From: Escherichia phage ECO103 4-12-1
Direction: 5' to 3' (one strand)
Sequence record: OR844650
Length of the DNA: 64,000 nt
Part shown: in pieces, positions 889-1,475 of the stretch
How positions within the stretch are numbered: the stretch's first letter is position 1
How the letters are laid out: each line of letters starts with the position of its first letter
Made by a program: the position numbers and the translations under genes
Notes under the pieces: generated by a model
The model's database searches: none
What the model saw: the letters and a program-made list of their open reading frames with translations, nothing else
Told to the model about the DNA's origin: nothing

Positions 889-1110
889 CTACTTTTTATT
901 TGGGTTTGGTATACAGTACACAAATACTAAATGATTAAAATGTTCTGTATTCGCATACTTTGCTAAGTCGGTTATGAGGAAGTTTGTATCTTTAAATCTG
1001 CCATCATTGTATGTTGTGATTTGAAAACGTAGTTCAGGTGCAAAAATATAATAATAGAATATATCATTTACACACCCAACAGTATGCTTAGCATATCTTT
1101 CAATTTTCAT
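889..1110 (-). CDS. hypothetical protein
   Basis: ORF track 889..1158; likely start MKIERYAKH at 1110 overlapping the stop of the upstream gene (ATGA). Confidence 0.4.
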   Translation of the reverse strand: MKIERYAKHTVGCVNDIFYYYIFAPELRFQITTYNDGRFKDTNFLITDLAKYANTEHFNHLVFVYCIPNPNKK

Positions 1111-1475
1111 GTATGGATAATCTCTTTCACCCCATATTCTTTTATTGCTAATGAGCAAATTTCACATGGTTTAGCCGGAACAGGAATTCCATCTTTACTT
1201 ATCCGTGCAATCAGTAAAGTATGAACATCAGCACGAGCAGCCAGTAAACATGAAATTTCAGCATGAAGAAACTCACCTTGCGGTCGCCCAGCACGAATGG
1301 CGAAACCCTTCTGTACTGGGTGAGTCTGTGTATAAGAATTTGTGCGAGTTGCCAGTACTCTACCTTTTTTATCAAGTGCACGAGCAATAACACGATACCG
1401 TTTGTAATTTCCTACTTGTTCAATAGGTGGCATCTGGCGTAATTCTTCGATTAGTTTCTCCAATTTACTATTCAT
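1107..1475 (-). CDS. small cytidine/dCMP-deaminase-fold zinc-dependent deaminase
   Basis: H-A-E (FLHAEISCL) and P-C-x-x-C (KPCEICSL) zinc-binding motifs of the CDA fold; 122 aa. Confidence 0.6.
   Translation of the reverse strand: MNSKLEKLIEELRQMPPIEQVGNYKRYRVIARALDKKGRVLATRTNSYTQTHPVQKGFAIRAGRPQGEFLHAEISCLLAARADVHTLLIARISKDGIPVPAKPCEICSLAIKEYGVKEIIHT

Follow-up and report, generated by a model that had tools for sequence, protein, structure and literature searches.

What does a large coliphage do with a second deaminase that holds little besides its zinc site? The question is raised by Escherichia phage ECO103 4-12-1 (sequence record OR844650), of which we analyzed a stretch of 64,000 nucleotides, here called the window, that shares 99.6% identity with jumbo coliphages from the PBECO4/121Q/BF17 group. 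A sequence-only reading of this DNA had proposed a second, minimal protein of the cytidine deaminase (CDA) fold in addition to a canonical deoxycytidine monophosphate (dCMP) deaminase, and both genes are indeed present. The small deaminase, of 122 amino acids, occupies positions 1107..1475 on the minus strand; the canonical enzyme, of the T4 Cd type, lies at 12592..13083 on the same strand, falls outside the small family and is used here for comparison only. Apart from these two, no open reading frame (ORF) of at least 50 amino acids in the window contains the pattern [HC][AS]E-x(15-60)-PCxxC. In the small protein the zinc-ligand His and the catalytic Glu belong to H71-A72-E73 (codons at 1257..1265, minus strand), and the two Cys ligands to P103-C104-E-I-C107 (1155..1169, minus strand), both read directly from the sequence. 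The protein scores 29.0 bits against Pfam PF00383 (dCMP_cyt_deam_1; gathering cut-off 25, E=1e-6) and matches PHROG 174, 'dCMP deaminase', with E=3e-13. A search of PDB sequences with the single protein gave no meaningful match, and a viral fold library gave matches only to unnamed small proteins. Compared with orthologues of 93-97% protein identity, the gene has a ratio of nonsynonymous to synonymous substitution (dN/dS) of 0.03-0.04, at a synonymous divergence (dS) of 0.57-0.98, and is thus under strong purifying selection. That it encodes a zinc deaminase with an intact site, in all probability an active enzyme, is well supported by these sequence data. We conclude that the second deaminase exists and is conserved, and that in structure it departs from the usual form of a known type of enzyme.

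The protein belongs to a large family. A profile search of 1.84 billion representatives returned at least 1,071 clusters (50% identity) at E<=1e-10, the best 150 of which are all 96-166 amino acids long. A second search gave 807 clusters at E<=1e-25; all that are listed are single-domain proteins that stand alone, so that no domain fusion offers a clue to function among the listed members, and the names assigned to them automatically are 'TadA' in some cases and 'deoxycytidylate deaminase' in others. With tblastn, we found the small deaminase in 195 phage records. The carriers include jumbo phages of the RaK2/Asterius/CBB type, phiKZ (PHIKZ260), Aeromonas phages with genomes of about 115 kb and Synechococcus myophages, together with phages of Cobetia, Limnohabitans, Ralstonia and Xanthomonas. 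When phiKZ gp260 served in turn as the query, 195 records were again obtained, with a near-identical breakdown by host genus. Searches for related loci were built on an alignment of the family (A1). When 185,579 cellular genomes, each representing a species, were scanned for the family pattern, only two loci emerged, both on short contigs of metagenome-assembled genomes, against 141 loci in viral contigs: the family is essentially virus-only. It is already in databases, with the inconsistent labels 'dCMP deaminase', 'TadA', 'cytidine deaminase' and 'hypothetical protein'.

Conservation within the family is concentrated on the zinc site and on a signature of its own. Loss of the zinc ligands had been named as an observation that would speak against the deaminase; across 150 representatives, all of which match PF00383, we find instead H71 in 99%, A72 in 96%, E73 in 100%, P103 in 99% and both C104 and C107 in 100%. 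The consensus reads G-x-N46-S-Y-x-K50-[TS]51-H52-P53-x-Q55 ... [YF]-L-H71-A-E73-[IV]-x-A-L in its N-terminal part and [VI]-x-R91 ... [AS]-K102-P-C-x-[IV]-C107 ... G-[IV]-K-x-[VI]-x-[YH]-[TS]-end in its C-terminal part. The signature positions are similarly constrained in the same representatives (N46 98%, K50 86%, [TS]51 99%, H52 94%, P53 92%, Q55 87%, R91 98%). In the window protein the K-[TS]-H-P-x-Q signature is Q50-T-H52-P53-V-Q55 (codons 1311..1328, minus strand), with Gln where the family mostly has Lys, and it marks the start of an extra helix between β2 and the HAE helix. The signature was not seen in the aligned sequences of the S-TIM5 dCMP deaminase and the M. capricolum tRNA deaminase. 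R91, encoded at 1203..1205 (minus strand), sits at the end of β3 and is invariant in alignment A1. The zinc motif shows some variation: HSE replaces HAE in phiKZ gp260 (L002 4998-5357) and several other members, and one representative, P0155, has RAE, with loss of the zinc-ligand His, and may be inactive.

The family is also very basic. The window protein has an isoelectric point (pI) of 9.67 and a net charge of +7.8; the family median is 9.57, with 97% of members above pI 8, compared with 6.37 for the canonical Cd and a median of 5.24 for the ORFs of the window. Together with the near-invariant K50, H52 and R91 and a frequent K102 beside the zinc site, the high pI indicates a polyanionic ligand, and by their conservation these four residues would fit phosphate binding.

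The expectation that the protein has little beyond its zinc site was borne out by structure prediction. The AlphaFold2 model of the window protein (mean predicted local distance difference test, pLDDT, 93.9; predicted template modeling score, pTM, 0.86) has a helix at residues 3-14, β1 at 28-34, β2 at 40-45, the extra THPxQ helix at 53-61, the HAE helix at 72-80, β3 at 86-92, the PCxxC helix at 105-114 and β4 at 118-121, after which the chain ends; there is no β5 and no C-terminal helix. The CDA-fold superfamily is defined by three α/β/α layers around a five-stranded sheet of order 2-1-3-4-5, and the model shows strands β1 to β4. About 40% of sampled members carry 10-14 extra residues with the pattern YT-[TDN]-x-x-G-x-h-x-x-h. 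For P0046, a member with this long form, the model (pLDDT 91.4) places β5 at 115-120 directly after β4 at 107-112 in an antiparallel hairpin, the topology of cytidine and blasticidin-S deaminases, unlike the helix-4 and parallel β5 of dCMP deaminases and TadA. The short form accounts for 172 of 287 members and the long form for the other 115; the former spans many lineages, and its chain always ends at the same position. A crude parsimony count on a UPGMA tree gives about 37 switches between the two forms among these members, with a long-form root. This suggests that the fifth strand was lost repeatedly and is apparently dispensable, and thus that the deaminase fold tolerates its repeated loss. 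Short or long form does not correlate with the presence of a canonical partner: the Aeromonas phage phiA019 has the short form alone, the Limnohabitans phage DC31 the long form with a partner, and the window phage the short form with a partner.

The other outcome that the sequence-only reading had set against itself, a simple duplicate of the dCMP deaminase, was rejected as well. The small deaminase has 23% identity to the canonical Cd of the window (BLASTP, E=0.003), and a hidden Markov model (HMM) of the family separates the two groups, with 102-145 bits for members and 18-29 bits for canonical dCMP deaminases. Conversely, a phmmer search with the canonical Cd found no member of the small family in the window, DC31, phiA019 or phiKZ. 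The canonical protein is itself typical: it scores 78 bits against PF00383, is 41-46% identical to T-even Cd, is found in 3652 phage records, and has GYNG, an HAEMNAL motif and a C-terminal extension past the VIY strand. As listed, its ORF has a TTG start and overlaps by 56 nucleotides an upstream ORF of 174 amino acids (13028-13552, minus strand); relatives annotate a shorter coding sequence of 157 amino acids, and translation probably begins at an internal ATG.

By sequence profile the closest solved relatives are nonetheless dCMP deaminases. The family profile matches the S-TIM5 enzyme (4p9c) best, with 1e-10, followed by the tRNA deaminase of M. capricolum (1.2e-8) and the S. mutans (8e-8), T4 (2.5e-6), human (4e-6) and PBCV-1 bi-DCD (8e-5) enzymes. 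With dCMP deaminases the small family shares the HAE...PCxxC site, the Asn after β2, the G-[IV]-K-x-V-x-Y strand past the PCxxC helix, and occurrence in phages among genes of nucleotide metabolism. Unlike them it has no HAExNA, showing HAE[IV]xAL in the family and HAEISC in the window protein; it keeps N46, but in an N-S-Y context instead of a GYNG-type loop; it is a small enzyme without helix-4, the parallel β5, the C-terminal segment that covers the nucleotide and the second zinc/allosteric region; and it adds the KTHPxQ helix and Arg91, with a pI of 9.6 versus 6.4. Judged from alignments and models, the clade appears to combine a core sequence like that of dCMP deaminases with a C-terminal topology like that of cytidine deaminases, fitting neither group cleanly.

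The genes around the small deaminase point largely to nucleotide and DNA metabolism. Jumbo phages of the RaK2/Asterius/CBB type have a gene of 208 amino acids, the deaminase, a few small ORFs and then nrdD-nrdG, with nrdD 0.45 kb (a RaK2-like record) or 1.7 kb (the coliphages) downstream of the deaminase; genes of the broader neighborhood encode DNA ligase, a MazG-like pyrophosphatase, the canonical Cd, a Sir2-like protein, NUDIX and PhoH. In about 18-20 marine and freshwater contigs the order is nrdA-(grx)-nrdB, three or four unrelated genes, the deaminase and ClpX/Hsp20/ClpS, and in eight contigs an ATP-dependent DNA ligase is the next gene downstream of the deaminase. About 13 contigs, with four gene orders, have it within or beside a cluster of ATP-grasp, COOH-NH2 ligase (PF14395), Amidoligase_2 and class-II GATase genes. 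Loci with such an amidoligase cluster, of the Aeromonas phiA019 type, are L018-L026, L028, L030, L043, L053 and L085, with a RimK-like ATP-grasp protein and a phiEco32-type COOH-NH2 ligase. The surroundings of phiKZ gp260 and of the gene in cyanophage S-SCSM1 contain only hypothetical genes, and no single neighbor was found to be conserved across all lineages.

Does the small deaminase then duplicate, or depend on, the conventional enzymes that convert deoxycytidine to deoxyuridine (dC-to-dU) nucleotides? We scanned whole genomes of four independent lineages by motif, family HMM and phmmer. The window phage has a T4-type Cd besides the small deaminase. In DC31 (76 kb; PQ492658.1, L088 33684-34729) a long-form small enzyme, an ORF of 88 amino acids and a canonical dCMP deaminase form one operon, with ThyX 4 kb further downstream; this phage offers a natural system for comparing both types of deaminase. 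In phiKZ, gp260 is the sole CDA-fold protein, and the genome also encodes a deoxycytidine triphosphate (dCTP) deaminase of the dUTPase fold (PHIKZ214), ThyA, Tmk, DHFR and ribonucleotide reductase. Finally, phiA019, whose genome encodes ThyA, Dut, NrdAB and NrdDG, has no CDA-fold deaminase other than the short form. As neither phiA019 nor phiKZ has another protein of this fold, the small enzyme does not depend on a canonical partner.

On the strength of its nearest sequence relatives, its gene contexts and the phiA019 case, we tentatively favor a zinc-dependent cytosine deaminase that acts at the nucleotide level, with a deoxycytidine nucleotide as substrate. It would be a catalytically competent hydrolytic enzyme from a distinct, virus-restricted 'mini' clade of the CDA fold, expressed along with phage genes for nucleotide and DNA metabolism, and would convert a deoxycytidine nucleotide to the matching deoxyuridine or thymidine nucleotide. 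The missing allosteric elements suggest that this would be an added, unregulated route to deoxyuridine monophosphate (dUMP) and thymidine triphosphate (dTTP). By analogy with the phage PBS1 Dcd, a T4-Cd-like enzyme that lacks the C-terminal 14 residues and is specific for dCTP (PMC12697855), the C-terminal truncation may make room in the pocket for a substrate that is larger or carries more phosphates. The DSS3_VP1 and PhiR1-37 enzymes likewise use dCTP, and phage CDA-fold enzymes with a shortened C terminus or an enlarged pocket are deaminases of dCTP or of deoxycytidine diphosphate (dCDP) (PMC12697855). These enzymes and the PBCV-1 bi-DCD resemble the small family in being single-domain proteins, and among them a shortened C terminus or an enlarged pocket accompanies the use of di- and triphosphates; they differ in belonging to clear T4-Cd or human-dCD lineages with a full fold, and no DNA containing deoxyuridine is known for carriers of the small family. 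Membership in the PhiR1-37 dCTP-deaminase family is unsupported, as PhiR1-37 is not among the listed carriers of the 195 records; the four Yersinia records there are apparently fHe-Yen9-03/04, with two accessions each.

The predicted pocket is open, with basic residues around it, which in our view makes dCDP and dCTP, or 5-modified deoxycytidine nucleotides, more likely substrates than dCMP. The latter possibility recalls enzymes such as mSCD-B5, a phage protein of 154 amino acids with a prototypical dCMP-deaminase fold, closest to the PBCV-1 bi-DCD; enzymes of this type prefer 5-methylcytosine and 5-hydroxymethylcytosine (5mC/5hmC) and act on deoxynucleoside triphosphates and single-stranded DNA (bioRxiv 10.1101/2024.12.05.627091). 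Like the small family, mSCD-type proteins are phage-encoded, single-domain and annotated 'dCMP deaminase' or MafB19-like. Their genes adjoin dCMP-methylating ThyA homologues, which the small deaminase does not.

Several observations weigh against this nucleotide-level reading. The hallmarks of dCMP deaminases (HAExNA, helix-4 with the parallel β5, the second zinc/allosteric site) are absent, and in the contigs with nrdA-(grx)-nrdB unrelated genes intervene, so that ribonucleotide reductase is only loosely linked to the deaminase. Three of the four lineages already have a dedicated dC-to-dU enzyme, which makes a purely redundant role unattractive, and the fourth has the small enzyme alone; no one phosphorylation level accounts for all the co-occurrences. 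The very basic character of the family (median pI 9.6 versus 6.4) also fits nucleic-acid binding at least equally well.

The same redundancy in three of four lineages and the same very high pI keep a polynucleotide deaminase in serious consideration, rather unlikely as we judge it: the protein would bind single-stranded DNA or RNA (host DNA, mRNA, tRNA or rRNA) and deaminate cytosine or adenine, serving host shut-off, destruction of host DNA via uracil excision, or reprogramming of translation. The 807 clusters, though, all stand-alone single-domain proteins, show no targeting domain or fusion partner and none of the features of toxin deaminases (delivery domain, immunity gene), and an untargeted DNA deaminase would harm the phage genome too. 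The window protein scores 12.3 bits against PF14437 (MafB19-like toxin deaminase; threshold 27); 89 of 150 relatives touch this profile, and the canonical dCMP deaminase does likewise. As for RNA, the window protein, with no residues after β4, lacks the C-terminal helices with which TadA and ADAT2-ADAT3 bind the anticodon loop of tRNA, and the TadA model of NCBIfam does not match it. The window has no tRNA genes, no tRNA-Arg, which with its A34 would be the substrate of a TadA-type enzyme, is annotated in phiKZ, DC31 or phiA019 (host tRNA-Arg lay outside this check), and the surrounding genes concern nucleotide metabolism and not translation. Given the missing helices, the window without tRNA genes and the three carriers without tRNA-Arg, a TadA-like action on phage tRNA-Arg is disfavored. 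Among the roles that the sequence-only reading had listed, those in nucleotide metabolism are thus favored by gene context and nearest sequence relatives; the tRNA-Arg role is not, and counter-defense found no support.

It is unlikely, in our estimation, that the substrate is a nucleoside, as in salvage of cytidine or deoxycytidine, or a small molecule that neighboring enzymes make, for instance whatever compound the ATP-grasp/amidoligase/GATase cluster yields. The cytidine-deaminase-like hairpin of the long form argues for the nucleoside and the amidoligase association for the small molecule. This association, however, is confined to one phage group and absent from the window phage, and the conserved basic residues and very high pI would be unexpected for a neutral nucleoside. 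Tetrameric cytidine deaminases have Cys as zinc ligand in place of His; the window protein differs from them in its His ligand, and from them and blasticidin-S deaminases in having no hairpin strand and in being very basic, and its only NCBIfam match, the tetrameric cytidine deaminase model TIGR01354, reaches 13.7 bits against a cut-off of 113.65. We consider it highly improbable that the gene is a decaying duplicate or remnant of a dCMP deaminase, or encodes a non-catalytic or regulatory subunit. The 23% identity to the canonical enzyme speaks against the former, and the remnant version is largely refuted by the purifying selection (dN/dS 0.03-0.04) and the conserved zinc site, with the catalytic Glu and both Cys in 100% and His in 99% of representatives. 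A short form shared by 172 of 287 members, in many lineages and with a constant end position, is equally unlike decay, and as the sole CDA-fold deaminase of phiA019 and phiKZ the protein is independent of a partner.

More broadly, we think it possible, if rather unlikely, that the family provides an ultra-compact four-stranded scaffold (~100-120 amino acids) acting on a polynucleotide or on a modified or triphosphorylated cytosine nucleotide. If so, its activity would be distinct from those of all characterized dCMP, dCTP, cytidine and tRNA deaminases, and it would be the smallest known nucleic-acid deaminase, of interest for base editors; if it acts on polynucleotides, it would offer biotechnology a very small natural deaminase scaffold. 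The usual co-existence with a conventional dC-to-dU enzyme makes an undescribed step in phage pyrimidine metabolism or nucleic-acid editing probable, in a family whose carriers include phages used as models or in therapy (phiKZ gp260, the RaK2/PBECO4/121Q jumbo phages, cyanophages and Aeromonas phages).

In the literature we found no biochemical work on any family member (the supplementary sequences of the mSCD study lay outside this check). The CBB paper lists only 'two CMP/dCMP deaminases' (PMC5259590), those on RaK2 and phAPEC6 name one dCMP deaminase, and the 'tRNA-specific adenosine deaminase' listed in the Sharanji paper probably corresponds, to judge from gene order, to the canonical dCMP deaminase. 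Differential RNA-seq of early phiKZ infection maps a primary transcription start site that belongs to PHIKZ260 itself (PMC8244752).

The sequence-only reading had further noted that the gene is more GC-rich than its surroundings. Numerically this is so, with 40.4% GC versus 32.9% for the window, the highest value among about 96 ORFs (z=2.2), but the horizontal origin that this might imply did not stand. By codon position, GC is 56% at the first, 41% at the second and 23.6% at the third (GC3), below the mean GC3 of the window (26.5%). The excess lies wholly in the first two positions and thus reflects a protein rich in Ala, Arg, Gly and Pro rather than foreign DNA; a foreign or recently acquired gene was therefore rejected.

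The deaminase gene overlaps both its neighbors by 4 nucleotides, which suggests translational coupling. The upstream gene (1472..2098, minus strand; phrog_16370, function not known), whose stop overlaps the deaminase start as ATGA, encodes the protein of 208 amino acids found directly upstream of the deaminase in all loci of the RaK2/Asterius/CBB type (L001, L005-L017). It has no Pfam or PDB match; as a constant neighbor with the ATGA overlap, it may be a functional partner of the deaminase. Downstream, an ORF of 73 amino acids (889..1110, minus strand) has a start that overlaps the deaminase stop, following the annotation of relatives (in fEgEco12, coding sequence 6366-6587 after 6001-6369); it has no PHROG match. 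Further along the window, a protein of 323 amino acids (3279-4250, minus strand) has a C-terminal WGR domain (PF05406, E=1e-10), and the corresponding region of close relatives also holds Sir2-like, NUDIX and PhoH-like genes, suggesting functions related to NAD and ADP-ribose. A low-GC pocket at 2850-3300 (22-26% versus 33%) spans an ORF of 126 amino acids (2902-3282) with only a weak, sub-threshold methyltransferase-like match. Finally, an ORF of 56 amino acids (2489-2659, minus strand) has two Cys pairs (CKNC ... C-x-N-P-G) resembling a small zinc-ribbon protein and, in common with the other genes of this string, overlaps its neighbors by 4 nucleotides.

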